From positions 15,314,001 to 15,378,000 of the forward strand of contig JAGIQG010000003.1 in the NCBI GenBank assembly GCA_024679065.1: DNA of 64,000 bases, read 5' to 3'. Numbering within the stretch: position 1 is the first letter of the stretch; each line of letters begins with the position of its first letter. The translations under genes and the position numbers were made by a program. The notes beneath the pieces were generated by a model. The model was not told the DNA's origin. It did not search any database and saw nothing but the letters and a program-made list of their open reading frames with translations. The DNA is from Sphyrna mokarran. Its lineage: Eukaryota. Shown here piece after piece: positions 4,384 to 49,208 of the stretch.

Positions 4384-4493
4384 TTTCTGAAATTTTGATT
4401 TTCTCCTCATTATGCCCTCTTTGACCAAAGCATTCAAGTAACAATGCTAGGTTTTGATAGGGCATAATGAGAAGAAAATCAAAATTTCAGAAA
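4384..4493. repeat. Inverted repeat, 35-bp arms with 1 mismatch, 40-bp spacer
   Basis: 4384-4418 tttctgaaattttgattttctcctcattatgccct versus 4459-4493 agggcataatgagaagaaaatcaaaatttcagaaa. Confidence 0.9.
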
Positions 4494-7994: not shown

Positions 7995-9460
7995 ACAAGC
8001 ACTCAGGTTCTGCACAGCCCAGCTGGTGGGGATATTCATAAATCCCTTCAAACTTTGCTTACATCAATCTGAGGTCCCTACCCACTTCAGGAAGACAACC
8101 ATCATCCCTGTACCAAAGAAAAGCCAGGTAACATGCCTCAATGACTACCACCTGATGGCTCTGACATCCATCATTCTGAAGTGCTTCAAAAGTTTTTCAT
8201 AGCATGCATCAACTTCGATCTCCCAAATTGCCTGGATTCACTACAGTTTGCCTATCAATACAACAGGTCTATAGCTGATGCTATCTTCCTGGCCATGTAT
8301 TCGATACTGGAACAACTAAATAACATATGTCAGATTCCTATTTATTAACCACAGCTCAGCCTTCAACACCACTATTCCAACAAAACTCATCTCCAAACTC
8401 CGTGGCCTAGCGCTTGGCTCCTCACTCTGCAAATGGATCCTACACTTCCTAACCCACAGATCAAAGTCAGTAAGGATAGGGATAACACCCCTTCACAATC
8501 ATCCTCAACATCAATGTCCCACAAGGCTGTATCCTCAGACTCTTATTACATTCCTTATACACTTATGACTGTGTGCCAAATTCTGCTCCAACTCCATTTT
8601 CAAGTGAGCTGATGACACCGCCATAGTGGGTCGGACCTCAAACAATAAGACTGAGGATAGGAAAGAGACAGATAACCTTGTGAAATCATACATCAACAAT
8701 AATCTCTCCCTCAATGTCAGTAAAGTGAAGGAGATAGTCAGCAACTATCATGGAAGGAAGGATCATGGAGGACATGCCTCTGTCTACATCAATGGGGATG
8801 AAGTGAAATGATCAAGAGCTTCAAGCTTCTCGGTGTCCAAATCACAAACAACCTTTCCTGATCCCTTCACATGAAGTTATAGTTAAGAACACCCACAAAT
8901 GCCTCTACTTTCTCAGGAGTGTAAGGAAATTTGACATGTCTGCTATGACTTTCTCCAATTTTACAGATGCAAAATAGAAAGTATCCTTTCCAGGTGTATC
9001 ACATCTTGGTATGGCTCTTGCTTTGTCCAAGACCACAAGAAACGACAAAGGACTGCGAATGTAGACCCACCCATCACGCAGACTAGCCTCCCATCCATTA
9101 AGTCCATTTACATTTCCCATTGCCTCAAAGCAACCAACATAATTAATGATCCCACACACCCCAGACATTTTTTCCTCCACCTTCTTCCATTGGGAAAAAG
9201 ATACAAAAGTCTGAGATCAGTTGCCAACTGAATCAAGAACAGCTTCTTCCCTACTGCCATCAGATTCTTGAATGGATATACTTTATACTTAGTTGATCTT
9301 TCTCTACACCCTAGCTATAACTGTAACACTACATTCTACAGTCTCTCCTTTCCTTCTCTATGTACCTTATGAATGGTATGTTTTGTCTATGTAGTACACA
9401 AGGAATAATAATTTTCAATGTATCTTAATACATGTGACAATAATAAGTCAAATCAAATAA
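7995..9460 (+). mobile_element. Rex1/Babar-like non-LTR retrotransposon, 5'-truncated, degenerate RT
   Basis: EVPTHFRKTTIIPVPKKSQVTCLNDYHLMALTSIILKCF near 8068-8190 and FK*ADDTAIVG near 8598; 3' end catgtgacaataataagtcaaatcaaat. Confidence 0.85.
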
Positions 9461-9949: not shown

Positions 9950-10300
9950 TGGCACAATGGCACAGTGGTTAACACTGTTGCCTCATGGCACAAGGGACCT
10001 AGGTTTAATCCCAGCCTTGTGTGGAGCTTGCATATTCTCTCCATGCCTGCATAGGTTTCTTCCAGGTGATCCAGTTTCCTCCCAAAGTACAAGGATGCGC
10101 AGCTTAGATGGATTGGCCATGCTAAATTGCCTTTCAGTGTTGTAGGATGTGTAGATTAGATGGATTAGCAGGTTAAATGAATATGGTTACGGAGATAAAG
10201 CAAGGGTAAGGGTCTGGGTAAGATACTCTGTCAGAGAGTCAATGCACATTCAATGGACCGAACGGCCTTTCTCTGTCATGTAAGGATTCTATAAATCTGT
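9950..10300 (+). mobile_element. V-SINE (HE1-like) with CR1-type tail
   Basis: tggcacagtggttaacactg...tgtgtggagcttgcatattctc...gattggccatgctaaattgcc...aatggaccgaacggcc...ggattctat; same family as 828-1146. Confidence 0.8.
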
Positions 10301-27685: not shown

Positions 27686-27883
27686 TTAAACGTACCATTC
27701 GTTAAAGTTCGATGAAAGCGTGCTGTGGTTGGATGTGTGGTGGACTGCAGACGATGTTGGGGACATTGAACTGTTGGTCTGATTTTCTGTTGTCGGCGAC
27801 ACGATGGTGGGGGGTGTTGAAGACTCGTAGCCAGAACTTGCCGCAGGAGAAGGCTGTGACCCTTGAGAAGATGCTTCGTGGAC
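27686..27883 (-). CDS. zic1: Zic1 coding exon 3 (C-terminus)
   Basis: Acceptor tttctttgctag then [30 protein letters not shown]...[10 protein letters not shown]; phase 0; the NFNEWYV stop is typical of Zic1-3. Confidence 0.96.
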
Positions 27884-28341: not shown

Positions 28342-28551
<210 letters not shown>

Positions 28552-30074: not shown

Positions 30075-31053
30075 CTGTGTGAGTTCTTTTGTGGATCTTG
30101 AGGTTTTCTGATCTGGCAAAGACTTTGCCACAGCCAGGGAATGGACAGGGGAATGGTTTCTCACCAGTGTGGACTCTGATATGATTCACAAGTTTATATT
30201 TGGCTTTGAACGGCTTCCCCTCTCTTGAACACTCTTCCCAGAAACAGATATGATTCGACTGCTCTGGTCCCCCAACGTGTTCCACCGTTACGTGAGTAAC
30301 CAGTTCGTGCATCGTGCTAAAAGTTTTGTTGCAGGATTTTTTAGGATTCGTCAACTGTTCGGGCTCTACCCATTTACATATGAGTTCTTGTTTAATGGGC
30401 TGCCTCATGTAACGAAAGAAGGCCCCGGCCCCATGGTGGGCCGCCATGTTCATGTTCATGGGGCCATAGCTGTGTAGCTGGGTCGAGGCGTAGTGGTCCG
30501 ATCTGGGACTAGTGACCTGGCTGTATTGGTCTGCTCTGCCATACATGTCCCCGGAAAAGCCTAAGCGCATTTGGCCGTTCATTACATGTGCATTGGGAGA
30601 AGCGTGGGTCGTCGCCTGCTCGTGTAGACCCGGGAAGAGTAGGTGCCCCGCAGCGTCAGTGTGTCCATGGGGTCCCGCAAAACTGCCCGCAGCCGCCGCC
30701 GAGGCGAACAGGCTGTGGCCGGCGCTGGCAGCCGCCGCCGCCTCCCCAAAGCCCCGATTGCGAAACAGAAAGTCCCGGGTCGAGTTGAACGCTGCGCTGC
30801 TGTACGAACTCACATGGCTGGGATGGTGACCGAGAGCGGCGGCGTAGCCTGGAGCCTGCGACGTGAAGGCAGTTTGACCCGAAGCGAGATCGTGGGTGCT
30901 GGGGCTGATTTTAAAAGCACCCATCCCGTCGGCGAAAGGATTGATCCCCAGCCCCACTTCCCGGTCGTTGACATCGCCTGTTGAGTGATGTCGGGATGTT
31001 CCGAAGGTAGTCACTCCAAGAGTAGGGTACTGAGGTCCAGCGTCCAGAAGCAT
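30075..31053 (-). CDS. zic1: Zic1 coding exon 1 (N-terminus, ZOC, ZF-NC, zinc fingers 1-3)
   Basis: [18 protein letters not shown]..., [36 protein letters not shown]2H2 fingers, donor ACAG|gtatgg; spliced CDS 1341 nt = 446 aa. Confidence 0.97.
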
Positions 31054-31439
31054 CGTCTGGCGATGGGGGTACAGAAGCAAAAATGATACAAATTTTGTAA
31101 TAAAAAAAGACGCTACAGACAATTCACAACGAAACTTGCTTAATACAAAATAGTCTCAGAGTCTGTTTGGAGGACTTGCAAAAACTCCTTTTTGTTTCCC
31201 CTTTTTTTTCTCCCCTCCTTCTCCCTCTTCTCTTCAGCGTGTGGGAATTTGCTGAAAGGTATTTTCTTCCCCCCTCTGCAAACGCAAATCATGCAATATT
31301 GTCTTTTGCGGTTTATCTTCCTGGGGAGAAACTTTCACCTCATCAGCCGGGCGGTGAGCTCGAGAATGATAGCGGCAATCATTCCTGCAGATAAATGAAT
31401 TGAAGAGACAACACCATCCCCTTGATGAATGGGAGTTGG

Positions 31440-31565
31440 GGGAGGAGTCACGTGGCGGAGGGCGTCTCTGCCCATTGGTCAGGCCCGTGCTGCCCCGTTG
31501 CGCCAGGCCGCCAATCACAGGCGCCCGCCCTTGCTCCCGCCGCCTGATTGGCCCGCTCGCCTCAT
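31440..31565 (-). promoter_or_regulatory. Zic1 proximal promoter (GC-rich; E-box, three CCAAT boxes, GC box)
   Basis: CACGTG 31449-31454, ATTGG 31474-31478, CCAAT 31511-31515, GCCCGCCC 31523-31530, ATTGG 31547-31551; ~400-500 bp upstream of the ATG. Confidence 0.7.
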
Positions 31566-34500
31566 CAATCCCAGGTATTGTACGCGCATGACAGTGGCTC
31601 CTGATAAATTATTGTCGAGTCCAGATTTCCCTTTCTTTTTCACTCTCTCTGTTTTTTATAGATATAATATGGGAAGAGGAGTGGGGGGGGAGGGGGTTGT
31701 GGGGGTTGGAGGGGGGAGAGAGGAGGTGGGGGTTGGTGGTGCAAAGAGAGTACTGAAGAGGGAGAGAGAAAAAAAAACTCTTGTCTTCTTCGACTTCACA
31801 AATCAGTCACCCCTTGTCATGCCTGCTTGAGATTCGTTAATGTGCCACAACTCCAGACGAGGGGGGAAAAAAAGCGGGCGGCTTCCTTTGTTGTTCAGTA
31901 GCTTTTTGATCGCCGGTGAAAATTCACTTACCCAGATGAGTGAGCAAAAAGAGAAAGAACACTCTCTTGAATTGGGTTAGGAAAATGCATATGTTTGGAT
32001 TCAGTGCAAACATACAACACTTGGTTGTTTTTTGAAGGCGAAACCCTTGATTAACCTGTCTCTCCCCATGTAAAAGGCGACTGAAAACATCTTGCTTGGG
32101 CCTTTTTTTTAAACCACAGTGACACTGAATCGCCGCTATACATATCTATAGGCTCTCGAACAATTGCAGAATAGCTGCGAGTAAGGATTCCCCCCTTTCT
32201 AAAAAAAACAGATTTGCTTCTTTCATCGATTATGGACAAAGAGAGCGAAAATGCGTTATGAATACTGTCAGCTAAGAAAAAAATATAGCTTATTTCCACC
32301 TCATGTTTTAGTTTATTCCTTGCCATTCACGGCCCCAAATTTGTTAAAGTCCATCTTCTGTGTTTCTGCAAAGTAATTTAATTATTTACGTGAGGCCAAT
32401 GGTTTGCATATTCATTAAGTCTAATTATATTCTAGTAATAGAAACGTAAAAAAGCCAACAAAGAATCGGAATCGTTCAATTTACCTTTTGTTCGCCACTT
32501 CAATGGATTTCCTTGAAGCTAAATCTGTGTGTTAAAGTCTTATTTTATTACAAAGAAGCCTTGCCGCATCCTTCAATAATTATCTCCGTTAGCAGACCAT
32601 CACTTTTTTGAAGGGCACTTTGAATTAGTTGCTATGTTTCCTGTCTTCCCACTTTAGCATTTTCCCCCCTTATCGAACAACACATTTATACGAACACTCT
32701 GGCTTGCTTACGTTTTGTTAAAAAAAACTCATACATCTTAAAGGTTTTCATAGAAAGTACAACAGGTTAATCTTTAGTGGGGGGAAGGGGGAGGAAAAAA
32801 TATTGTTCGCGCGGAACTATTGGCGCAAGTGTGTGGCAATGAAGTTCCAGTTATATTTTTCAGCCGCATTTTTCTGCAAGGAAACAAGTTTAACATTAAA
32901 TGTTAGTAAACTGAGGGGAGGGGTAGGGGGGTGCAATCTCCACGATTGCAGTGTTGTAGCATCAAAGGGTTTAAAATGAGTGGCTGTTAAGTGCATATTC
33001 CCAATTTACGACGACTTGAGGCTGTGCTCATTTTGCTGATGACTATTAGGGCGGCGTGGCTGCTTGCTAGAGAATTCCAAGTGCAAGTTTTTAGGTGCTT
33101 TGACGGTCCTTGTGCGAGGGTGTTGCCAGTTAACCTGGCTTTCCCGATGCAACAGATTCCAAATTTGCAGTGCACATAATGAAATGTTTTTTTTCACCCT
33201 GCTTCGGTCCTTGTATCTGCGCCCCAAGAATTAAGTGGAACGCGATATTGACTTGCTGAGTGAGTACAATAGCTAACATCACGGCATTGCTCTAAATGAT
33301 GCAATATGCTGAAAACATGGATATTAAAATCACAGCAGTCTAGTAGCAGAAGCAGGCGTAATTTGATTCAAAAAGATTTACTGCGCGCTGATAGAGTGTG
33401 CAAATTCTAAAGGGACACTTTAAGAGTATGAAAAGTAAACGTTTCCCATAGCATTATCTTTGGGCTACCATCTCCGAATATACAAAGAAGGGCTGATTTT
33501 AAAAGTTGTGGGATGGTGGAAGTTATCAAGTGGGATTTGCGGCGCTCTCCGCAGGAAACGCAGGCTGCTTGAGTTCAAAGCCACATGCACCGACGTGACA
33601 TATAAGCCATTAAAATATCATCCTGACGGCTCATTTCTGCTTCATCATACATTCCCTAACTGCTTCCAGAAACCTTGAAAAGGCGAAATGAAGAATGGCT
33701 ACCTAGACAAAGCTCCAAAGTAGATTTTTTTTTACTTCGAAGTTACCTGAATTAAACGATCGAAGGCATCTTCTTCAACAGGTGGAGGACGGTAAGAGAG
33801 GCACGTGTATTCGACTGACTTTTACTAAACGACTCCTGACCTCTGAATTTCCATCATCTTTCATGTAAATGCAATTGACTAAAAAGAGAATGGAGATATC
33901 AGTCAGATTTTTGTTTCCTCAGAATAGCCCTTGTCAGGGGCCATCATGTTGTAATAAAAGCAATCTAGGTGCGAATGGCTCTGAATTATACATTTCCATT
34001 CGAATGCACTTGTGTGAACCGATATTTTGCCTCGGATTGTTTTCAGTCGATGGATAGCAAAGCAGTTAGTTGTTCTGTGGAAGGGAGGGTCGTGGGGGGA
34101 ACGTTTGCCTCGGGGTTGAAGTGTTAGTTTACAAAAGGAATTGTTTTTACTCGCTTTAAAGCGCTGGCTATTTTCATCCAGTCCGATTTAAAATTTAAAT
34201 TTGATTTATACCTCGGAAACGAAGTTAATCGTTCAACCGCTTATTTGCGACGAACATATATATCGTATACGTTGCTGCCATTAAAGTCGAGTTTTACAAC
34301 TCTGCGCATTTTTGTACCCAATACGGTTTATTTTTCGGATGCGCGAATGTATATTTGGAAGTTCTTCAGTTTGTGAGTTGAGCAACGCGTGACCTTTATC
34401 CCGCGTTCTCTTGATAAGTAAACGCTTTCGAATATTTGAGATAATGAATTGGTAGTTGCGTCCACGCTCTCCTTAAACACAAATTCCCACTAATGGAACG

Positions 34501-37500
34501 CCATTTAAGTGAATTCAATTGTAATGCAAAAGTTATCTTGCAAATTTGTTCCTGATGACTGACCCCAGCACCGCATGTTTAATTGATATCTTTTTCTTCT
34601 CTCTCCAGATCTGCTTTTCCTCATTGTTCGAAATGCAATAATGCTAAATGTCACCCCATAGTTTAGGATTTTTCTCATACAGTTTCAGGGACTCACATAG
34701 TTTTTTTTCCCGTTTATCATACTTATCACTGTTTAAACTGATCCCAATCAAGTTAGTCACTTGGCTTTTGCGCGCAAGAACAGCTCTGAAGTCCCCGACT
34801 TTTGAAATACCATATCTTTTGACCCCTGACCCGTGACCGACCACATGTGCCAGAGTCACACAATGCCACACAATGCATACCTCGGAAAATATTAGCTGTG
34901 TTGAAAGAGTCGTTGGCTAAAGTGGATGACAATAGTTCAATATATATACGCTCTTTATTTGGACCACGGAACGGAATGCAATTTTCCTGCTATTAAATCT
35001 ATTCGCTAGTTAGGTACGTTGAGATTCCGGTGTTGGGTGCTTCATTGATTTGTTTCTCATGTGGCGGTGTTTTAACTTTCTTTTTCTTCTTATTATCATT
35101 CAGGCAAGCGAGATTATGAATCATTTTTTACACATGCCCTTAAATAAATCCTCATCAAAGCAAACCCCAAAATTAAACTCGTCGTCAACAGATATCTGGG
35201 CAAACTCAAATAAAAACTCAGCTCCGCTCAAACTTATTAGTTCTAATAGTGCCCAAAGCCAAGCGTTTAAACATTTTATTATACTTCCGATTAGGCAGAC
35301 ACTCACATTTCTAGTATTTTGTTTCAAGTTGCCCGTGGCTTTGAATTAAAATTCCAACTGCCTGAGGTTCGCCTTAGAAACTTTGGGCGGGGGGGTGTGG
35401 AGGGGGGTGGGGGGGGAGGTGAGTGGGGGAAGTTTGAAGGTCACCCTTGCCTTTACCCATTATCCGCCTGCTTGCCTTGAGATCTGTGCATCACATCACT
35501 ATAAGAGATGTGATTGGTACTTTGACCGATTTGTTGTACAAAGATATTTCCATTTTTTGGAATTACTTCCAGTGTGTGTGTGTGTTGTGTACACACATAT
35601 ATACGCTATATACATAAATATATAGAGAGAGATGGAAAAAAATTATCTACGTAATATTTTCACGTAAATTTCGCGTTACCAAATTTGTAGGTCCTTTACG
35701 CAACGTATCGGGGAGCCCCGATGTTGAAATAAAATATTCTGACACTAGTTCCTGTATCTTATTTTACTGAATTTATTCTTGGGCTGTAGATGGTTTAAGG
35801 ATTGCGTCAAAAGTTCAAAGCTAGAGATTTCCAACTTTTTGGAAAGGACGAACTTTTTTCCCATGTATTTATTTTTCGATGTGGACAACTGTGGAACAAT
35901 AGTGTGAAAGGCAGTTTTACTGGACACACTCCTGCAGTTTTGAAATGTATGCTTTCCATCCACTTAACTAAAAAAACACATCAAAAACAAGCTAGCGTAA
36001 AATCCGCCAGGACACGAATGTTTTCACATTGTATGTGGAAGTTCACTAAATTTTCTGAGTTCTGGGGTTGGCACACCGAGTTCATGAGACATTGTACCGT
36101 CTAGCCATCAGCAATATTAGGTTTAATATTAAGCATACAGACCTAGAGCAAGATCTGAAATGTCACAACTATATTCTGCAGCTAGCATGGGATTGGGCCA
36201 ATTTGGAAAAATATGTAAAAATATATCAAAAATCAGAATAATTAAGTACTATGGCAGTTAATAGATCAATAATTTATTGTGGAAAATGCGTTCATATAGT
36301 AAGTCTTGTTATGGTATTGTTAGTGCACTTTACATATTAGCAGCCTCTCAGTTCTTCAACAGGACAAAATGTTATCCCATTAAATTTAGCCAGGTATCCA
36401 GAGTTACGCGAGCTAGCTACGTTCTTGTGGCTTCATGACCTGATTTGGAGAAATTGAAACCAGCAACAAAACTAATCCTGTTATTTTGTTAACCATGTTA
36501 TTTATTTAAAGAGCAAATGTACCTTAAAGCATCCGCCCACTAACTTTCAACTTTGTTTTACTGGATTCGTTTGATCTATCTATCTATCTAAGTATCTGGG
36601 AGTTCAATCATCTGGCTGTGTATTCGTCTGCCTCATTGTACCAAAAAGTTATTACGAAAGCACTTTTTTTTGTAAGTTGTCAAACATCCCGTTGTGTTGC
36701 TGGCCTGTTTGAGGCAATATAATGCAATAGAAGAATCTAGGAATCCCTTCCAAAACTGCACTTACAGTGAAGGGTGCCACTGTAAGAAAAATTTACAGGT
36801 CTAAGCATTAATTTGAGGGATTACTGATGCACAACACACACACACACACGCACACACACACACAAAATCATGTTTCTAAAATAGTTGCTTCGGCACAGTT
36901 TTTCTTGGAAATTCTTTCTATTGATACTGTTTATTAAAAACTGAAACTGCCAACCCTGGTTTTTCCCCTCAGAACTATTTAACACACTGTGTCCATAATC
37001 AAATCCAGCCGTCACCAGTTTTAATACAAGTGCAACGTTTAACATCATCAAATTGTGAACTTGCAGCTAACTGCAAAATTCGAATTGCACCCATTGAAAT
37101 ACAGGCCTGCTTGCGACTGAAGGAACTATTCATTTTTAATAATTCCCGTGATTACGTTTAAAAACACTTTCTTACTGAAGAACTGCTTCAGGTTTTACCA
37201 TGGCATCATTGCTCCCTCAGTATGTGGAGAGGAACTGAAAGTTGTTATTTGCTCAATTGGTAACTTATTAGCATGTAGACTTACACTGTCTTCTGCATAA
37301 ACCTGAATACAGAATTGTTTTAAAGCAATCGTTGCCCCTGACGAGATTACTAGTATAAAACACTTACCTATGAAATTAAGATCAAACACAATTTTTTTAA
37401 ATTCCTCTCTTAACTCTTGGTTTTCAATCTCCAGTCTCTATCGTTGTCACTTGCAGTGTTTTATGTGTCACATACTGTACAAATTAGTGACAGTACATCC

Positions 37501-40500
37501 CACAAGCAGCTGTTTGCTGTAGTTCAATGTTCTCTGCATGGCAGTACTAGAATTAATATTTGACGACCATCGCATTGTAACAACAACCTTCGACCCAATG
37601 TGCCTGGACTGCCATATTATTCCATGACACTTGCATTCTTTAATTTATTTACGGACGGTTTGAGTGTAATGAAAATTGGACGCGTATTTGGATCAATTCA
37701 AGTCTGAGACTTTGATCTCCGTGATAGGTTTATGCCCCCTTATAAGTATCAGGGTTACAGGTATCTACATTTCAGTGCTTAATCACAGCCACGTACAGTC
37801 GGACCCGTATCAGAGAAAAAAAAAACTTTCCAAAATTAGAATCGTTTGTCAATGATGGAGAGGTAATGTAGAAATTACCAGAAATATATTTGTCGATTTA
37901 TTGTGGCCAAAGCTAATGGATTATCAAGTTGGGGATAAGAGATGGGTGGGGGCTAGGGAGAGGTAGGGCTTTGGGGGTGATGGTGGGGGGGGGGGGGGGT
38001 GGAAATGGCAAGAGAATGACCACAACTTTGAAAGTGTAGACTCGTCTTCACAGTAATTCTGTATTAACAACACAGTGGGACAAAAACCGCACAACTTGTA
38101 GGCCTTCTTAAAGCCATCAGAACATTAATATTTCTGACAATGCTAAAATCGATATCGTTCAGATTTATGGAATTCACAAATGTGTGTGTTTTTTTAAAAT
38201 TAATCGGTGATTGTAAAATGTTTAAAATATTGTTCACAAATGTGTTTTGCGTCAGTCACACATTTAACCCTGTGAAATTTAAATAGTGCCGCTTATTAGT
38301 GTAATAATCCTGCATTGATCCAATCGTATGCACGTTATATCGAATGAATTGTGCAAGTTTTTTATTTCTAGCTCCTTTCCTAGGCTCTTTTAAGAGTTCC
38401 AACCATTGACTGCTGAGAGGTGACCTAGACCATGATGGCTATCTCCATGATCAAAACAACAGGTAAATTAACTTGCTGTGTGCATGTTTTCTTTTTTCTG
38501 AACTGGAGTATTATGCTTGAAATTTCGCAATATTCTATATAATTTAGTATCTATGTGCAGCATGTTTACGCCGTGGTCTTTACTAAAGGTGAAAATAGTG
38601 ATCTTAAGTGACATTTATATATTATATATATGTATATATAGAGAGAGAGGGTTCGTAGTATTCTCCACTATGGTGATAACTTGTTATCACACCCTAACTT
38701 CCGCCGATGGGATTAACTGTAGCGCTCAGTGAAACAAATGCCTCCTTCCGTCCAGACACTCATGGCTATGGATTACGACTATACTGTCCATTGAGGTTCC
38801 CTAGCCTTTTACTGTTTCAATTGCTGTCAAACATGTATAGTAACATATTTCTTCTTATTTTGTAGCTGACGTTTGCAATATTGCATGAGTACATAGCAGG
38901 TATGATGTCGTTACTGAAATATTGCCGGGGAAAACAAAACAATGAAACCAATCGGTGTTGCTTGACGAATACTTTCAATAATGTCATTAACCAACCAACA
39001 GCCTAACAATTATTGGTACATAAAATTAACATCGTGAGTTACTAGGGGAGGGGTCTCTATGCGGCATCTTACACAGGACAATTACATATGTATTTTTAAA
39101 GGTAATAATAACAGTCAATGCAGTATATGTAAAACGCAACCATACTTTCGGTCCTTTATCTTGTAACATACCAATGTCGCTTATTGAAATGTAAAGTGTA
39201 TCATTCAGTACTGCACACTTACTGGAGTTGCTTTATTTAGAATGCTACCCTTGTTTGATTATTGTTTCTTAAAAGGGACTCTTTGCATATTTTGCACATA
39301 AGCCTGCTAAAGGACGTGTTTTTAATCAAAATTCTTCCACAAATATTTACAAAATGCACATCGATGAAGGCCGAAATGTACCGAATTCTAGCTGTTATGT
39401 ATGGCAACTAATGTAAGCCACTCACATCTTGGTTGTGTAGAGTTTTTCCTAGCAATTAGATGAACTAGCTCATTCTGTTTTTCAGGTTTCATTATCCTTT
39501 TTTTGAACGATTTCGTGAGGAAACAATTACAGTTTCCCAGAAATGTAGTTGGATCATTGTATCTGTTGACACCAGGAGTCAGTTGATTCTCAGATTAAAC
39601 CATATGATTTAAACTGCAAGCATATACAAACCCATAGATATGCAACAAGCCAAATTAATCTGTAGTAAAAATGAAGTATTTCCTTGTTCATTACGCCAAG
39701 CGTTTGGTGGGTGGGTTGAAAGGTACAAGTATAACGCATGGAATCTTGGGAATCTAAATTACTAGGCTTCTAGCTGTTTTTTTTTAAATCGAGCTTCTGA
39801 TTAGAAGGAGGGAATAAAATATTGCATCAAAACTATTCCAGAGTTGAGCTTCAGTAAAAAGAGCGGGTTTCCCTTAAACTGTTTATTTCAATGCATTTTC
39901 CGAAAGTAAATTTTGCCAGAAAATAATTTAATTTGGAATTTACACTGCTCAGTTCTGACTTAACCAAAAGCAAATACCACGCCTATTTGTTGCATTTCCA
40001 ATGTTTTCTTTTCCCGCCGGGCTTCACTTTACACTAGGGTTTAATCAAAGTTCCTTAGCATCTCTGTTGGATTTCTTTAGTGCTGATCCTGCAGTCTGCA
40101 AACCTGGAATTCTGCAATAATTTCCTGTTTATAATGGGGTGCAGGAAGCTGTGAACTGCCCGCCATAAGAAGGATATAACGTCTGCCTCGTATTATTCTG
40201 TGACATCTTAATCACATAGTGAAATATCCTGTCGGTAAGAGAAGTAGTAACGCGCTAATTTCTGAGGAATTTTGTTTGGACTACAATGTAAACCATATGT
40301 CCAGCAAAAATAAACTTTTCCACACTTTATCGACGTTTACAATCTTTGCAAATGAATTAAACGATAGACTGGAAAGATCAATTACGTGAAATAAAGAGGG
40401 AAACTGAAGAACCCTCACTTCATCTGTATAATTGCATTATTATGGCACTGTACGCATTTTATACTTAACTAAAAGTGCAAAATTTGCCATCTGCCAAAAT

Positions 40501-43500
40501 AGATATTGACAACGAAGAAAAATAAACAGCGTGATCGGCAATGCATATTGCATATCAAAAATTCTTAAAAGTCAATTGCAATGAACAATCTCGTGATTGT
40601 CTTTCAACAACTTAAATAAGATGGGAAAAGTCAGAGGTCCATGTCACGTTATGTGGAATAAATGTAGAATTGTATAGTATAACAACATTACGCTCAGTCA
40701 CACCGTGCAAATTGGATATTTTACAATACGTTTACTTCAGAGATTCCACTAATCTAGATTTAGGCTGTAGCAAACATTGCTATATTGCAACCTGCATATA
40801 AGCACTGTGCTCTTTTCTAGGGACCGTCGCTCGCGACTGACAAACTGCTCGAAAGACAACGGGTAAACTGACATCAAGGTGGGGACTTGACCAGGTATGC
40901 AGCAGCACAAGTGCGAATCCCAGTTTAAGCCTGCAGTGTGAAGCCCTGGAGGCTGAAATACAAACGTGTCAACAATCAGAGACCCACATTGCATCCTTCT
41001 CTATTACACGTTAGAGCTTTGGAGTGTGTTGGGATGGGGGCAGGAGATATGTTTGTGTGTGTGTGGAAGGGGAAGTAATGTGGTGGGGGATGATGGGGAA
41101 GGGGAGTTGATGATGGGGTTTAGACACTCCAGATTGTGCTGGTCATTAATTCGGTTTGGGACTCCGAATGATGGTCTGAGGCATAAATGGTCTGGGCACA
41201 AATATCGAATGCGAGCAAGTGAAACACTTATTGTAAATAATTGGACGGGGTGGGGGGAGGGAAAGGAAGGGGGGGATGCACAGAGTTATGCAGCTAGCAA
41301 TGCAACTTCAATCTAACCTTCACTGCACAACATTAAATATCCCAAAAGCCTTTAAGATCATATCTGAAATTACTAGTAAACAGTGAACATGAGTTAATTA
41401 CATTTTTCGCATTATTTGAATGGCGTGTCTTCAGTTTTAGGGTGTGTGTGTGGGGGGGGGGGGGGGAAGTTGAGGTTGATGTTTACAAATCCAGCGAGCC
41501 CTTCATCATATTTAACATACTTGCTATGACTGCGGAGAATTGTTGTGGACAACTGTGTGATTGTTTTCTCCGCTGCCGTGCCCCTACCCTTCCCCCACGT
41601 GTTCTCATTTGATCATACTTTTTTGTAGGGGGGGTGGTGAGAAACATTTTTCTTTCTTGTTCTGAGTATTTTGCTTGTCTCTGGGTATATTCCTCGCACG
41701 TTTGGCATTACTTACGTCTTTCTGCTTCTTTCTCTTCCCCCCCTCCCCCCCCGTACTCCCCCCCCAAAAAAACACACACCTTAAATTTGCTATTTCGCTC
41801 TCTCAAGCTCTCCCCCCCCCCCGCCCACCCACCTTGCCCCTCATCACCTCCCATCCACACCACTACCTTCCCCCCCCACCCCACCTCCCTTCCCACCATA
41901 AATTTCTGTCCACCCTATCACTCACAACTCCTTTTCAGAAACCTACCTTTTCTCTCTCTCTCTCTCTTTCTTGTATTGTAGGTATGCCGTGTGCTAGACT
42001 GCAGGCTTCAAGCTCTGTCGCCAGATCAGCTTAGAACGACGGCCTAAATCCACGGGAAAGCGCAGCACCGGGGTTTCCGCTTCCCTTCTGCTGAGCAAAT
42101 CTGAGAGGGGCTACAACGTACATATTTGAGTTAGTGGCCTGGTTTGTGTTACCCTCCCCTTCGTTGTTTCCAAAAAAAAAGACGCTAAACTACTTTTTTT
42201 TTTCTCTTGCATATGCACGGTTTTAGACGGGCGTATGCAGTCAGGGCGAATATAAAAGACAATATGCAGTGAGGACAAGTTACAGTTGCGGGCATATATG
42301 TTGGAGTGTGGAGGGAGGGGGGAGGCGGTGGGGGTGGGAGGGATTGCGGCTAGCATCACGTTCTGGTATTAGAGGAAACATATGAAAAAGTGAGACTGAT
42401 ATATGGAGCGCAGTTCGGTCTAAAAAGCCTCTCACTCGTGTTTACGTAGACAGAGGCGATCTACTGGCAATTTATCATTGCCCTATCTGTGTTTTTGTTT
42501 TGCAATTCCTCTCGATAGTACACTGCAGCTCACTTTCTTTTTTCCCCTCTTCCCCTAGCGATGCGAGTTTCCTTTTCGCGGATCGCAGCATTTACAGATT
42601 CTCGCAGCACGGTGTACTTTCGCATTCACAAACTTGAAATTGAAAACAGGTTTTTTTTTTTGGGGGGGGGGGTGAAGTAGAGCGTGAAATAAAAGGCAGC
42701 AAAATGCCGATTGTATCCAGGCGGCGATCCAGAACTCTCGGCAATCCGTCCAAACACAGCATTGAAACAAAATGAAAACTTACCCTCTCCAAAACAAAAA
42801 GAAAGCTGAGAAAATAAAACTAGCCCAGCTTCCCCCCTCCACCAATCGCCCACCTCCCCCATCACCCGACTACGTCCCCCTCTTGCCGCCATCCCACATC
42901 CCTCCACCAGAACCCAAACTTCCCCGGATTCTGGCTTGGGGGAAATGCCCGCGACTGCAGGCAGAACTCAAAAAGTTAAGTTCCTAAAACAAAAGTTAAC
43001 AGATACCACTGACTTGGGGGGGTCTCTTAGATCGGCTGCGCTGCTCGGAAGAAGAACTCGGCGTCTGATTTTGTCCGAAAATAAAGGGGACCATAACACG
43101 CCTGGAATTCGGGAAAGATTAAAAAAAAAACGACTAATTTCCCGCCCGAGCATAAACGGACCGTTTTCACTTCAACTCTCTAATCTCCCTTTCCCGTCCA
43201 TTTAAAACTTCGGTTCTTAACGTTAGTCGCAGGGGTTGAGGTGGGTGAAATATAAAAAAAAAGCCTGGGGGGAGGAGGTGGTGGTGGGGACGGGGATGCG
43301 GCCAGGGATACCGCTAAAGAGATGATGATATCTGACCGGGCTTGGGATAAACTTTCCGACTCTCCTAACTGTACATTTGTTCGTGCAGCGTACACGGGGC
43401 ACATAACACCTCGTAAATTATCAAACTTTACTGCTGCGCACTCTTGTTCTCTTTAGTCTAATAGACGGTTCCAATTGAACCGCTCCGAAAAAAAAGTGCC

Positions 43501-44039
43501 CAGTGGGTGCTTGTTAATCAGGAACATACCTAATTTAGTTTCATAATTTAGGGAAACTTGCATGTGCACACAGGCTAACAACTAAGGAGTAACCTTCAGC
43601 GAAAAAAAAAACCCGTTAAATCCTGTCCCAATTTATCGCAGCTTGATGGATCTGATGCTAACCGCCTCCCACACCCCACACCACCCCCCTCCCAGAAATG
43701 AATTACTGCATGATCAAGTGTCTGAGAGGGGGACGGGGTGGCGGGGAGGGGGGGGGGGACGCTAGTCATTCATTCTTTGCGGTTAAGGGAGAAAAAGCCA
43801 ACTCCCATCAACTTTTAGAGAAAAAAAATCCTCATTTTATTTATTTAGTTTTGTAGAAAATCGCTGAAACACGAAACCGCCTTCCACTCAGAGTTAGTAG
43901 TAATAAAATGAATATGTTTGAAAGAAGCCAACCAAAAAAAAACACATCCCCTGGCCAAAAAAAGAGACTTTTCAGCGTTCTCTCTCTCTCTCTCTCTCTC
44001 TGTGTCTATGGCTCTCCCCTCACCCCCACCCCCAACCAC

Positions 44040-44140
44040 TTGGTGGAAATACGCATGTGCCCTGACTGGGCCCTGTAACTGGCATTGTCAATCATCTGTA
44101 AGTGACCAATGGGATTGCTGGCTGCTCGCAGAGCTCGACG
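44040..44140 (+). promoter_or_regulatory. Candidate Zic4 proximal promoter
   Basis: GACCAATGG (CCAAT 44106-44110) plus gtcaatca ~20 bp upstream, ~230 bp before the ATG; the same GACCAATGGG context occurs in the Zic1 promoter. Confidence 0.45.
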
Positions 44141-44334
44141 GGCTGCAAAGCTGTTCATGAATCTCAAATCAGTTTCTCAATGCGTCCTGCTGCTGCAATC
44201 CGTCTGCACACTCTCTACACCGAATGGCTATCAACGTTGGCAAAGAACGACTTTCTAAAGTTCGGTAACTTTAAAGAGAGAAAAAAAGTTTTTTTTGTGT
44301 CTTTTTTTTTCCCCGCTGTTAGGCATTATTGAGC

Positions 44335-45496
44335 ATGGATGCTTTGGGGAGTCCGATGATGGACCCAACATTCGCCAAGCGAAACCCAGCGCTGAGATTA
44401 GTAGATTTGGCAGGAGCTCACCACCATCACCATCATCATCACCATCCCCCCCAGAGCATGACAGGCTTCCCGGGGCTCAGCGGCCATCCCCACTCAATGG
44501 CACACACGCACCCTGGGGAGAGTGCTGGAGAACCCCGCCTGGGGCCGAGTCCTTTCGGGCCTGAACACATGGGGCACCCTGCAGCCGCCGCTGCGCTTAA
44601 ACTCAGCCCAACCCATCCCCACCACCATCACCACCATCATCATCACCATCATATGGCAGGCCACGCTGAGGCTGTCTCCAATCCAACGGCAGCTTTTGGC
44701 CCAGCGCAGGCGGCGGCAGCAGTCAGTTACTCGGTCTCTCACTCCCACGCCAGCTACACTGCCCAGGCTATCTCGGCAGGTAGAGACTTCCTCATCCGCA
44801 GAGATTTGACATCCTCAGTAATGCCAGGTCTCACTGATCAATATCCTGGCACAAGTTCTCACCACGGAATGTTTGTATCAACAACAGGTAGCTACCCCGG
44901 ACACCATGGTCACCCCGAGGCTGGAAGCCACTCTCTATTCCCTGGACTGCATGACCAGGCTTCCCATACAGCCCCAGCTGGACACCATCTGAACGGACAG
45001 TTAAGACTGGGGCTACCTGGAGACATGTACGCCAGGTCTGATCACTACAGTCAAGTAGCAAGTTCCAGGAGTGATCCCTTTGCCTCTTCCCCTCTACATG
45101 GCTACGGTGGCATGAATATTAACATGAACCTGACTGGCCACCACGGTCCAGGTGCATTTTTTCGCTACATGAGACAACCCATCAAGCAGGAACTGATCTG
45201 CAAGTGGACTGAACCGGACCCTGTCACTAAAAAACCATGCTCAAAAACTTTTAGCACGATGCACGAATTGGTTACTCACGTAACAGTGGAACACGTTGGG
45301 GGACCAGAGCAGTCGAATCATATCTGTTTCTGGGAAGAGTGTCCAAGAGAGGGAAAACCTTTCAAAGCCAAATATAAACTTGTAAATCACATCAGAGTCC
45401 ACACTGGCGAGAAACCATTCCCCTGTCCATTCCCTGGCTGTGGCAAAGTCTTTGCCAGATCAGAAAACCTCAAGATCCACAAAAGAACTCACACAG
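44335..45496 (+). CDS. zic4: Zic4 coding exon 1 (poly-His N-terminus, ZF-NC, zinc fingers 1-3)
   Basis: [37 protein letters not shown]..., [44 protein letters not shown]2H2 fingers, donor ACAG|gtcagt; divergent from Zic1 as in the known Zic1/Zic4 pair. Confidence 0.94.
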
Positions 45497-48400
45497 GTCA
45501 GTATTTTCGAAGGATCATTATCATTCTGTTTTACTTCATTTTACGGTACCCGAAAGTTCATTACAGTGTTTTCGGTCTGTTACCAGGGGATACTTCAGTC
45601 CAAATAGACAGCGAAGCTGGGCTTGATGTGGCTTGGAAAGTAGCCTGATTTTTGCAGCATTTGTATATGTCACACAGCTCTAAGAACTTTGCATTGCTGT
45701 GGGTAGTAAATAATTTATCATGTATTCGCTGTAAACACTCGTGCGGTTGCAGATAATAAAACAGTCTGATTCAATATCTGCAAAAAGTGAAAGTCACTGG
45801 CTTTCTTCCCCTAAGCTATTATTAAAGATTGTTCCAAAACGTAACATTTGGAACTCTGTGGACCCCGTCTTGTCATTAAGTAAATTTCAGTCAATGCTTT
45901 AGCTGAGAATTATTAATGAGTGAATTGCATATTTTGTCCTATTCGTTGCAGTGTCCCACGAACATAAATCTGTTAACTCCAATCACCATGTGCAGTAACT
46001 GCACTACAAGTGTTTATCTGCATCCTAATCTACTTGTTTTTTTTATATATATTTAAAAAAATCTAAAGACGTTAGAAGCCTCAGACTCAATGAAAACAAA
46101 TGTTCAGGCCTACGTTTTCCGAAAATGTCATTTGCAGAACCATCTCTGAAACTGGGACATGTGTCAAAAACATCTGCTAGTTCCACTTAGCAGCAAGGAA
46201 ATTGAGTAGATCGAAGCGTATTCAAAGCTGCGTTTGAACTTCCCAAGCCAGGAATAATCTATAAGTAATGAAACCGCGCAGATTAAAAAAAATCGCACTC
46301 CCTGGGAAAAGCCTCTATTAATTGGGCTTGCAGCAGCGGTTCGATCCGTCGCGGGGACTCGCTCTCTGTTATTATGCGCCTTGAGCGCGGCCTAGAAAAC
46401 CTAGCCGGGGACTTCCCTTCGAATCTCTCCCCCCTCAGAAGCCGAAGATATTTCAGTTTTATGGTCAGTCTTGTGGTAGCAAAACATGTTTCTTGGCTGT
46501 TTCCTTTCGATCTCGAGTGGAAGTTTGAGAAGGTGTGGTGGTTGGACTGGCGGTGTGTGGAGGTGGAGCGGGGGGGGGGTATTCGGCGGAGGGGGGGCTT
46601 GTGGGGAGAATGTTGTTTGAGGATTGGGTGGGAGGGGGAGGAGGGTGTGAGAGGTGGGCGGAAGGTTTGGGGGTGGGGGGGGTGACTCTTTGCAAAATGA
46701 GGAGGCACATTTTCATCTGAGGCACTTTCCTGCACCGAAACTTGTAAACTCTTCCAAACTGTCCGCTTATGTTTTCTCCACCATGCCTCGCAACCATCTC
46801 TTGTATTTACTCGTTACATTATGTGCAATGTCCGTTTTGGGGGTTTCAACCGAATGGAAGGTGTGTTTTGAATGCATATCATAACAAGTGGGGGCGGGGG
46901 TGGGGTGGGGGTGGGGGGCGGTGGTGTGGGTCTTTTTCTAGGTCTGTTCCTCGGTATATTTCAAATTCAAAAGATATTTTCCATTTACAATTTAAAGATA
47001 ACATTTCTAAACTGCAGCGTTTAGTTGGGGAAAAGAAATACAATGTAAGGGGCACGTTGTAGCGGAGGTAATGTGTGAAATGGATAATTCAAAAATATAC
47101 CACGTAATGAACGCGTTACGTTTAATATTTTTAAACAACCGATAGCACAAGATACACAAATTCATTTGTGCTGTGGGCCCACATACGCACACTGTGCGTA
47201 TCTGACACTTGATAGTATTGTCTGTGCTTGCCTAAACAAACTTTCCTAGCACTGCATGGACTTCAGCTCAGCAGTTTAGAGTGATGAGCACTTAATTTGC
47301 AAGAACAATTCATTGGACAGACCATATTTCTATTTATTTAAAAAATACTACAGTAGCCCATGAAAGGGCCGTGTGTTTAGTTGAGTTGAGTGCTCACACG
47401 TTCCCATATTTCAGTTAAATAGCATTCCCCATATGTTGCAATTAATCACTGTAGCTGTGATAAATACTGCATTTCTCTTTTAGTTTAAAATTGCACACAC
47501 TATTGTTACTAAATTCTTAAATAAAAAATAGCAAGTATAGTAATTCTATTAACAAAGTAATTATCTTGTAAAATATTCATGCCGTTTGATTGGCTTCAGT
47601 CCTTTATAGGCTAGTTTTATTGAATTGAAATCCCGTCCCTTTTACATTATTTATTTCAACAAGCATGAAAAGATCGCCTCTGGGTAAACAGAGGCTTCAG
47701 TAGTTTTGTCACCTCACTTATAAAATATTACCGTACAAAGTCCAAAGCTGGAATTAAACATGCATGTTAAAAGATTGATTAGAATGTGAAACCCGCTTGC
47801 AGAGCTTATCACCAGGTAGACATTTATTCCTCTCTCTCTCTCCAAGTTATCTAATGCAAAGTTTGAATTCAATTTCAGGGAGGCTTTCGTCGACTTATTT
47901 ATTTTAGCCCGGACTAAGCTAACTGGTGAGATGACACTTAACAAGGATTGGTCGCAGTTAATCTTATATTACTCACTCCTTTATACACAGCATTAATAGT
48001 AAAGAAGGAGAAATGTGTAGCCAGGAGGAGTTTAGAGCTCTCGGGAATTGTCAGAGCAGACTTCATGCTCACAGTGTCGGACGCTCCAGACACGGCACAA
48101 TAACAGTGTTTATGAGTCTGGGCTTCCCCTTGGGTCCACTAACTTACCACTAGCTTGTACTACACTAATATCGTTGATTGGCCGTCTCAACCTAGCAAGT
48201 GAAGGTCAAATTATTCTAACGGCTTTCTGAACGTTTGGCTAATTACGGTGTAATATTAAATCGACATTTTGAGAGTTCAGTGAAGGACCTCTGCTGTAAA
48301 GCACGCAGCCTTGCTTTGTAGCCGCACCGGATTGCATTTACCGGAGATTGTTTTTTTTAAATCAAATTTAGAATTTATGGGAGTGTAATGTTTTATAGGA

Positions 48401-48771: not shown

Positions 48772-49208
48772 GAGAAAAGCCCTTCAAGTGCGAGTTTGAA
48801 GGCTGTGACAGACGTTTTGCTAACAGCAGCGACAGGAAAAAGCACTCGCATGTGCATACAAGTGACAAGCCCTATAACTGCAAAGTAAGGGGCTGTGATA
48901 AATCGTACACGCACCCCAGCTCCCTCCGTAAGCACATGAAGGTCCATTGCAAATCTCCACCTCCCAGCTCGGGCTACGAATCCTCCACCCCTTCGCTGGT
49001 GTCGCCTTCTTCGGACTCAGGTCGGGACCCCCCGGCTCCAGCCTCCCAGCTTGACCCCATCACATCTTCCCACGCAGCTAACCTCAGCGAGTGGTACGTG
49101 TGTCAGAGCACAGGAGCAAGCGGCATCCCAACACCTCCAAGTAACTCCTCATCACCTGGACCTAGAGAGCACCCTTACAGAAACTCTGACCCCAGAACTA
49201 TTCTCTAA
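48772..49208 (+). CDS. zic4: Zic4 coding exon 2 (zinc fingers 4-5 and C-terminus)
   Basis: Acceptor ttttccttcag|GA GAA AAG; ...[53 protein letters not shown]...LSEWYVCQ...RTIL*; HSHVH and CKVRGC are Zic4/5-type; spliced CDS 1599 nt = 532 aa. Confidence 0.96.

Follow-up and report, generated by a model that had tools for sequence, protein, structure and literature searches.

The window, a stretch of 64,000 nucleotides of the Sphyrna mokarran genome, contains a head-to-head pair of genes transcribed divergently, Zic1 from the minus strand and Zic4 from the plus strand. Zic1 encodes 447 amino acids in three coding exons and Zic4 encodes 533 in two, every intron having GT-AG boundaries. Both proteins carry the Pfam zf_ZIC domain and five C2H2 zinc fingers (ZF1 to ZF5), and the solved structure nearest to them is that of ZIC3 (2RPC). 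The best named matches were cartilaginous-fish Zic4 and cartilaginous-fish Zic1, which confirmed the gene names; Zic4 of the window is identical to Scyliorhinus canicula Zic4 at 520 of 532 residues and likewise to Carcharodon Zic4 (520/532). As a head-to-head Zic1/Zic4 pair the locus is ordinary; its coding features are as follows.

30075..31053, minus strand: coding part of Zic1 exon 1 (open reading frame and alignment, Pfam, named matches)
28354..28517, minus strand: Zic1 exon 2, encoding ZF4-ZF5; a control region with silent sites saturated relative to Zic4
27686..27883, minus strand: coding part of Zic1 exon 3, including the stop codon
44335..45496, plus strand: coding part of Zic4 exon 1 (open reading frame and alignment, Pfam, named matches)
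48772..49208, plus strand: coding part of Zic4 exon 2, encoding ZF4-ZF5 and the C-terminus, with the stop codon; a control region

Zic1 and Zic4 are a much-studied developmental pair, known from the cerebellum and the neural crest. Their deletion is linked to Dandy-Walker malformation in the abstract of PMC4564895. According to passages of PMC7403390 and PMC6175831, a head-to-head tandem duplication that predates the vertebrate genome duplications produced subclass A (Zic1/2/3) and subclass B (Zic4/5/6), and the vertebrate bi-gene pairs are Zic1/4, Zic2/5, and Zic3/6. The same passages treat the subclasses as diverging after the tandem duplication and make no mention of DNA exchange.

One part of exon 1 departs sharply from the rest of the pair. 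Zic1 (30327-30075, minus strand) and Zic4 (45244-45496, plus strand) differ here at 9 of 253 nt, an identity of about 96%. Over 84 codons, the differences comprise eight synonymous changes and one Ser/Pro replacement (TCA/CCA), which reproduces exactly the count given in a preliminary description of this DNA. The perfect runs of 57 and 88 nt reported there also hold, at 45286-45342 and 45409-45498, the latter extending to 90 nt when the GT donor is included. Immediately after the donor, identity between Zic1 and Zic4 breaks at the very next intron base; at its 5′ end, the tract starts just past the second Cys of ZF1, by a two-codon gene-specific indel. The extent proposed earlier, ZF1-ZF3, is therefore right for ZF2 and ZF3, but ZF1 contributes no more than its second half, past the second Cys. 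The two arms, about 14.9 kb apart, form the top-scoring inverted repeat among the 102 in the window, and no Zic1-Zic4 similarity was found in the non-coding DNA of the window outside the tract, introns included. The tract and its surroundings are divided as follows.

30075..30327, minus strand: homogenised tract as found in Zic1 (residues 243-326), comprising ZF2, ZF3, and the latter half of ZF1
45244..45496, plus strand: homogenised tract as found in Zic4 (residues 304-387), in the opposite orientation to that in Zic1
45244..45342 (plus), paired with 30327-30229: 5′ sub-tract with two synonymous differences, dS 0.11, including the 57-nt perfect run
45343..45408 (plus), paired with 30228-30163: middle sub-tract, dS 0.61, with 7 of the 9 differences, among them the Ser/Pro replacement (tract residue 34)
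45409..45498 (plus), paired with 30162-30073: 3′ sub-tract of 90 nt from ZF3 to the GT donor, with zero differences
45145..45207 (plus), paired with 30432-30370 (minus): ZF-NC and the start of ZF1; a control with a near-identical peptide and saturated silent sites
30343..30348, minus strand: two additional Zic1 codons in the ZF1 loop, a gene-specific indel just beyond the 5′ boundary of the tract
30328..45243, no strand: 14.9-kb spacer between the inverted arms, containing both start codons and the N-terminal halves

A crossover within the inverted arms would flip the 14.9-kb spacer. Net inversion in this shark is ruled out, as the N- and C-termini pair correctly.

We compared degenerate codons that specify the same residue in both genes. 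In the tract, 73 of 82 were identical; elsewhere the figure was 69 of 188 (Fisher p 1.6e-16), and the two conserved flanks taken by themselves gave 28 of 70 (p 1.3e-10). The observed clustering was matched in none of 100,000 permutations. Four-fold sites matched at 27/33 in the tract and at 18/75 outside it, the latter indicative of saturation. The internal controls of the preliminary description were confirmed, with 13 of 19 codons differing for the upstream peptide and 12 of 24 for the peptide in exon 2; silent sites of the ZF-NC peptide and of exon 2 are saturated between Zic1 and Zic4. Chance or codon bias is ruled out as the cause of the identity: for the 81 in-exon degenerate codons, codon usage predicts 31.3 identities, and the tract's own usage 46.0, where 73 were observed (P 5e-24 and P 2e-13, respectively). 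The identity of the tract is real and statistically overwhelming.

An assembly or polishing step that copied one gene onto the other might in principle produce such a pattern, and bird assemblies do appear to stumble at this very repeat (see below). We nevertheless consider an artefact highly improbable. Nine dispersed differences persist, including the Ser/Pro difference, which is found in independent skate and ray records; the window is free of N; each gene joins its proper N- and C-termini; and the 57- and 90-nt perfect runs adjoin unique DNA. Moreover, mis-mapped reads would presumably be unable to make 96% identity out of saturated sequence.

The age of the pair was addressed with quick trees, subject to long-branch warnings, of 58 named proteins hand-picked for balance over genes and lineages. 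The N-terminal tree recovered subclass A versus subclass B with an SH-aLRT of 99.9, and the C-terminal tree did so with 88.8. A Zic1+Zic4 clade was rejected by both regions (AU p 8.5e-46 for the N-terminal and 0.0013 for the C-terminal), so the pair is no recent duplicate and recent duplication is ruled out as a cause of the identity. The earlier premise that the pair is ancient and its silent sites should be saturated thus agrees with both the trees and the four-fold sites outside the tract (18/75). With flanks that are old and saturated, the tract must be either far younger than the surrounding genes or frozen. The tract protein alone rejected no topology (AU p 0.27-0.50); four Zic1 and five Zic4 rows of that tree are identical, which simple retention of an ancestral peptide would also fit. 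It had further been suggested that the tract distorts Zic phylogenies. This applies only to DNA trees of this exon, which would be misled; with proteins, the N- and C-terminal trees give the accepted 1/2/3 versus 4/5/6 division, the tract alone resolves nothing, and whole-protein Zic phylogenies are little affected. A profile search for an invertebrate or jawless outgroup, dominated by long zinc-finger proteins, yielded none, and the six matches checked were bird Zic3 and mammal Zic4.

A frozen tract would imply constraint at the nucleotide level, the exon end being a regulatory element (an exonic enhancer or a splicing element) held in both paralogues since the duplication. The Zic locus is rich in conserved enhancers, according to a passage of PMC6175831, and in birds Zic4 intron 1 is strongly conserved at its start, where emu and falcon agree at 48 of 50 translated positions. 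Constraint would also account for the bird gene models described below and for the lack of GC enrichment in the tract, where GC3 is lower (0.48/0.43) than outside (0.60/0.53). Raised GC, characteristic of converted regions according to a passage of PMC2720389, was sought as a sign of GC-biased conversion and not found in the tract; it is a common accompaniment of conversion and no requirement. Constraint, however, requires that two genes have preserved 96% identity, each on its own, from a time before the jawed-vertebrate genome duplications, and that this identity ends exactly with protein identity, the adjoining introns having nothing in common. Folding gave no signal against synonymous shuffles (z -0.95 to +1.56), which rules out RNA structure as the cause, and the window had no Rfam match and no tRNA. 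In ray-finned fish, the tract residues change freely. We therefore regard nucleotide-level constraint as quite unlikely.

Conversion is favoured by the age of the pair, by the saturation of silent sites beyond the tract, and by the failure of codon bias, RNA structure, and recent duplication to explain the identity. We propose, with a probability of roughly 65%, that repeated intrachromosomal (ectopic) gene conversion acts between the inverted paralogous exons and is confined by selection to the sole long protein-identical stretch. The preliminary description had invoked recurrent ectopic conversion. For this shark, conversion is the best explanation and the mechanism is probably right; recurrence is what we infer from the unevenness of dS, which is 0.17 over the tract and 0.11, 0.61, and 0 along it. 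The process may likewise extend to other lineages.

The proposed process would run as follows. Purifying selection would hold the 84-codon peptide alike in Zic1 and Zic4, such that the DNA stays similar enough for the inverted paralogue, 15 kb away, to serve as the repair template when one copy breaks. Every conversion event would reset silent divergence and thereby favour the next one. Conversions reaching the ZF1 loop, the introns, or ZF4-5 would hit non-homologous DNA or replace gene-specific residues and be lost, and in this way heterology and selection would set the tract boundaries. Crossovers would invert the 15-kb spacer and exchange N- and C-terminal halves, and would be purged. A minimum homology length may explain why conversion spares the shorter stretches of identical peptide found upstream and in exon 2. 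The middle 66 nt would have been converted longer ago than the tract ends, probably least recently of all. ZF1 and ZF2 constitute one structural unit, as described in a passage of PMC2837044, which offers a plausible reason for strong constraint on the tract peptide.

A different history would have a single conversion, or a replacement of an exon segment, early in cartilaginous fish, followed by slow decay instead of ongoing exchange. The dS of the tract, 0.17, is above near-zero, and sharks have slow substitution rates, as such decay would need. The 29-codon perfect run at the 3′ end is no longer than the tract-wide rate predicts (p 0.18) and is thus compatible with a uniform rate. The Ser/Pro split at tract residue 34 also occurs in skate and ray, so that Ser34 in Zic1 and Pro34 in Zic4 (12 of 12 cartilaginous-fish Zic4 proteins) have persisted alongside each other. 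However, 7 of the 9 differences fall within 22 codons (clustering p 0.016, for a block chosen post hoc), and the Zic1 of Heptranchias carries Pro34, as Zic4 does. Nor could one event in a shark ancestor provide the DNA identity that the bird models imply in a distant lineage. We consider a single old event unlikely. The Ser/Pro site opens the middle block, the most diverged part of the tract, and its split in skate and ray suggests that this block has long escaped conversion.

We extended the comparison to other species at the protein level, using the 303 proteins, out of 325 named ones, whose 85-residue tract was clean. Between Zic1 and Zic4, the tract differed on average by 1.0 residues in cartilaginous fish, 0.2 in birds and reptiles, 2.7 in amphibians, and 5.2 in ray-finned fish. 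The corresponding means were 3.3, 2.5, 1.6, and 5.4 for Zic1-Zic2 and 4.1, 7.0 (with one Zic5), 4.6, and 7.3 for Zic4-Zic5. In cartilaginous fish and in birds and reptiles, the tract is thus closer in Zic1-Zic4 than in the younger pairs Zic1-Zic2 and Zic4-Zic5, whereas in ZF4-5 the order is reversed, Zic1-Zic4 differing by 3.0-3.8 and Zic1-Zic2 by 0.8-1.6. The amphibian tract is nearer in Zic1-Zic2 (1.6) than in Zic1-Zic4 (2.7). Low protein divergence would fit conversion in sharks and sauropsids, and would equally fit a retained ancestral peptide.

Sixteen genera were represented by both genes, and after two with broken models were dropped, 14 were usable. A non-consensus tract residue was common to both paralogues in three of them (Hymenochirus, Ranitomeya, and Lissotriton), at hypervariable sites, and residues found only in the Zic1 tract occurred in nine (six teleosts, skate, ray, and Spea). 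A repeat of the comparison for Zic2/Zic5, proposed earlier and carried out here on proteins, did not reveal homogenisation, and the same held for Zic3/6 and, in ray-finned fish, for Zic1/Zic4; same-genus differences were 3-9 residues for Zic2/5 and 14-21 for Zic3/6, in a measure to which changes in the near-invariant 3′ half would be invisible. Silent third positions, sought through alternative-frame gene models among 350 named proteins, gave no usable match.

Bird gene models bear on the DNA itself. In a set of 192 named Zic1/Zic4 proteins, 29 continue past exon 1 into intron 1 and show which intron follows the tract. Of the 23 bird Zic1 models of this kind, 17 enter a Zic1-type intron, three enter the intron of Zic4, and three are unclassifiable. 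The models that switch come from Accipiter nisus and Nipponia nippon (twice); they have a Zic1 N-terminus and ZF1 loop and switch precisely where the tract ends, although in one Nipponia model just the first two residues of the Zic4 intron are present. A swap between subclasses A and B was seen in none of the 150 spliced named Zic1/Zic4 models. A switch at the exon end needs near-identical Zic1 and Zic4 DNA there in birds, whether it arises by misassembly or by a real inversion. The switches are probably assembly errors, and it is very unlikely that some of these apparent chimeras are crossover (inversion) alleles. In either case, they show DNA identity and not what causes it.

Taken at its widest, repeated conversion could mean that Zic1 and Zic4 have exchanged the tract since before the jawed-vertebrate genome duplications, that the exchange continues in sharks and in birds and reptiles and has ended in ray-finned fish, and that the arms are able to cross over, flipping promoters and making hybrid genes. 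We offer this only tentatively, as a possibility that we would not bet on. If so, the pair would be among the longest-lived conversion partnerships of vertebrate developmental transcription factors, with the ZF1-ZF3 modules of one subclass A protein and one subclass B protein locked together. If conversion here is general, the identity of the fingers would be owed in part to DNA exchange and not only to selection acting in parallel, a mutation newly arisen in either gene could spread to the other or be erased by it, and the loss in ray-finned fish would serve as a natural control.

Most likely, the tract adds one more example to a known process, ectopic conversion; what makes it notable is how old the pair is and how important the genes are. 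The transcription-factor genes engrailed and invected form an old tandem pair that undergoes conversion in the part encoding the DNA-binding domain, on evidence from multiple species. They differ from shark Zic1/Zic4 in being insect homeobox genes, and the present case concerns the DNA of one species. Their concerted evolution in hexapods is cited in PMC3199776, a passage of which describes conversion between Dlxa and Dlxb of Capitella teleta over a 150-bp tract in the exon for the DNA-binding domain. As far as that account goes, the Dlx genes resemble Zic1/Zic4 as a linked, inverted pair of developmental transcription factors in which identity is limited to the exon for the DNA-binding domain and the remainder has diverged. 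They are, however, annelid homeobox genes, arranged tail-to-tail, with a tract that enters the intron and a duplication internal to annelids, whereas Zic1/Zic4 are head-to-head zinc-finger genes that arose by duplication before the jawed-vertebrate genome duplications, and their tract is longer and ends at the donor.

Mosaic concerted evolution of BMP8A/B (inverted), DDX19A/B, and TUBG1/2 in mammals is described in PMC2720389; conversion of part of each gene has lasted more than 100 million years, with stable boundaries and low dN/dS in the converted parts. Unlike the Zic tract, theirs cover two or more exons with introns, are more than 97% identical, and have no clear relation to domains. ZIC had no match in the available text and five supplementary files of that paper. 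Lefty1/2 of mammals and LeftyA/B of cartilaginous fish group species by species, which the passages seen of PMC12344233 attribute to conversion. Like Zic1/Zic4, Lefty is a vertebrate developmental bi-gene cluster with sharks included; unlike them, it encodes signalling ligands, conversion distorts its protein tree, and independent duplication is an alternative, which the flanks exclude for Zic1/Zic4. No paper was found for amphioxus Brachyury, considered as a further analogue.

Conversion has been little noticed in vertebrate developmental genes, as a passage of the 2024 review PMC12344233 states. Our search, which covered the subscription literature thinly, turned up no account of Zic genes undergoing conversion or concerted evolution, so an earlier mention is possible. 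The available passages of PMC6158797, PMC2988786, PMC2837044, and PMC2908108 do not address conversion, and one in PMC2908108 records high homology among chick zic zinc-finger regions.

In practical terms, the two shark genes cannot be told apart with probes, guides, or short reads placed in this exon; the cross-reaction of probes anticipated earlier follows, for shark probes that span the tract, from its 96% identity. Among public bird Zic1 models, some have the look of chimeras at the tract end. As to the direction of exchange, codon likelihoods for the donor tie (-76.6 versus -77.2). CpG density is 2.8 and 2.4 per 100 nt in the tract, 3.4 in Zic4 exon 1, and 7.4 in Zic1 exon 1, a weak hint that Zic4 may have been the donor.

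The end of the near-identical tract shared by Zic1 and Zic4 also marked a point at which several bird gene models were disturbed. In the public Zic1 models P0128 (Accipiter nisus) and P0203/P0204 (Nipponia nippon), exon 1 is followed by intron 1 of Zic4; judged by their sequences, these models are chimeric at the tract end, through misassembly or inversion. The bird read-through models P0047, P0052, P0087 and P0117, predicted proteins that continue past exon 1 into translated intron 1, cover the opening ~150 nt of this intron in Zic4. The stretch is highly conserved, with 48 of 50 translated positions the same in emu and falcon. A conserved non-coding element likely adjoins the tract at the start of bird Zic4 intron 1. 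Two further bird records are wrongly labelled: the duck 'ZIC 4' (P0054) is of Zic5 type with a duplicated finger segment, and the pheasant 'ZIC 1-like' (P0074) is Zic4.

The Latimeria models of Zic2 (P0217) and Zic5 (P0298) break at nearly one point, tract residues 50 and 52, a pattern that a collapsed repeat formed by the two genes' 3′ exon ends would produce. These breaks hint that the gene conversion proposed for Zic1 and Zic4 may operate in the Zic2/Zic5 pair as well.

Cartilaginous fish possess a Zic6-type gene (P0108, P0242-P0253 and P0263), named ZIC 1-like or ZIC 3-like in the databases. At tract residue 47, their Zic3 and Zic6 mostly have Ile in common (11/12 and 11/13, respectively); ray-finned fish have Val in both (7/7 and 15/15).

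The majority of the other shark Zic4 proteins begin two codons further upstream, with Met-Ser-Met, and in the window the first ATG of this motif is replaced by TTG (44329-44337). Three segments match alternative N-termini present in Zic4 isoform models from sharks and rays and, on the strength of these matches, are probably upstream Zic4 exons:

44109-44272, match to alternative N-termini
40821-40880, match to alternative N-termini
33759-33791, match to alternative N-termini

The Zic1 start lies <3 kb from one of these candidates.

The Zic pair sits within a large CpG-retaining domain with few dispersed repeats (window ~20000-64000), where CpG observed/expected has risen to 0.51-1.01; over the initial 20 kb of the window it is 0.11-0.40. 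Repeats and other features of the window were:

950-1134, 9958-10140, 15237-15526 and 18199-18439, dispersed SINE-like repeats
1457-1707 and 9198-9458, a separate group of dispersed SINE-like repeats
4384-4493, imperfect palindrome
12423-13238, open frame of 272 codons, presumably resembling a LINE reverse transcriptase fragment
18606-18883, minisatellite with a 23-nt unit in 12.3 copies
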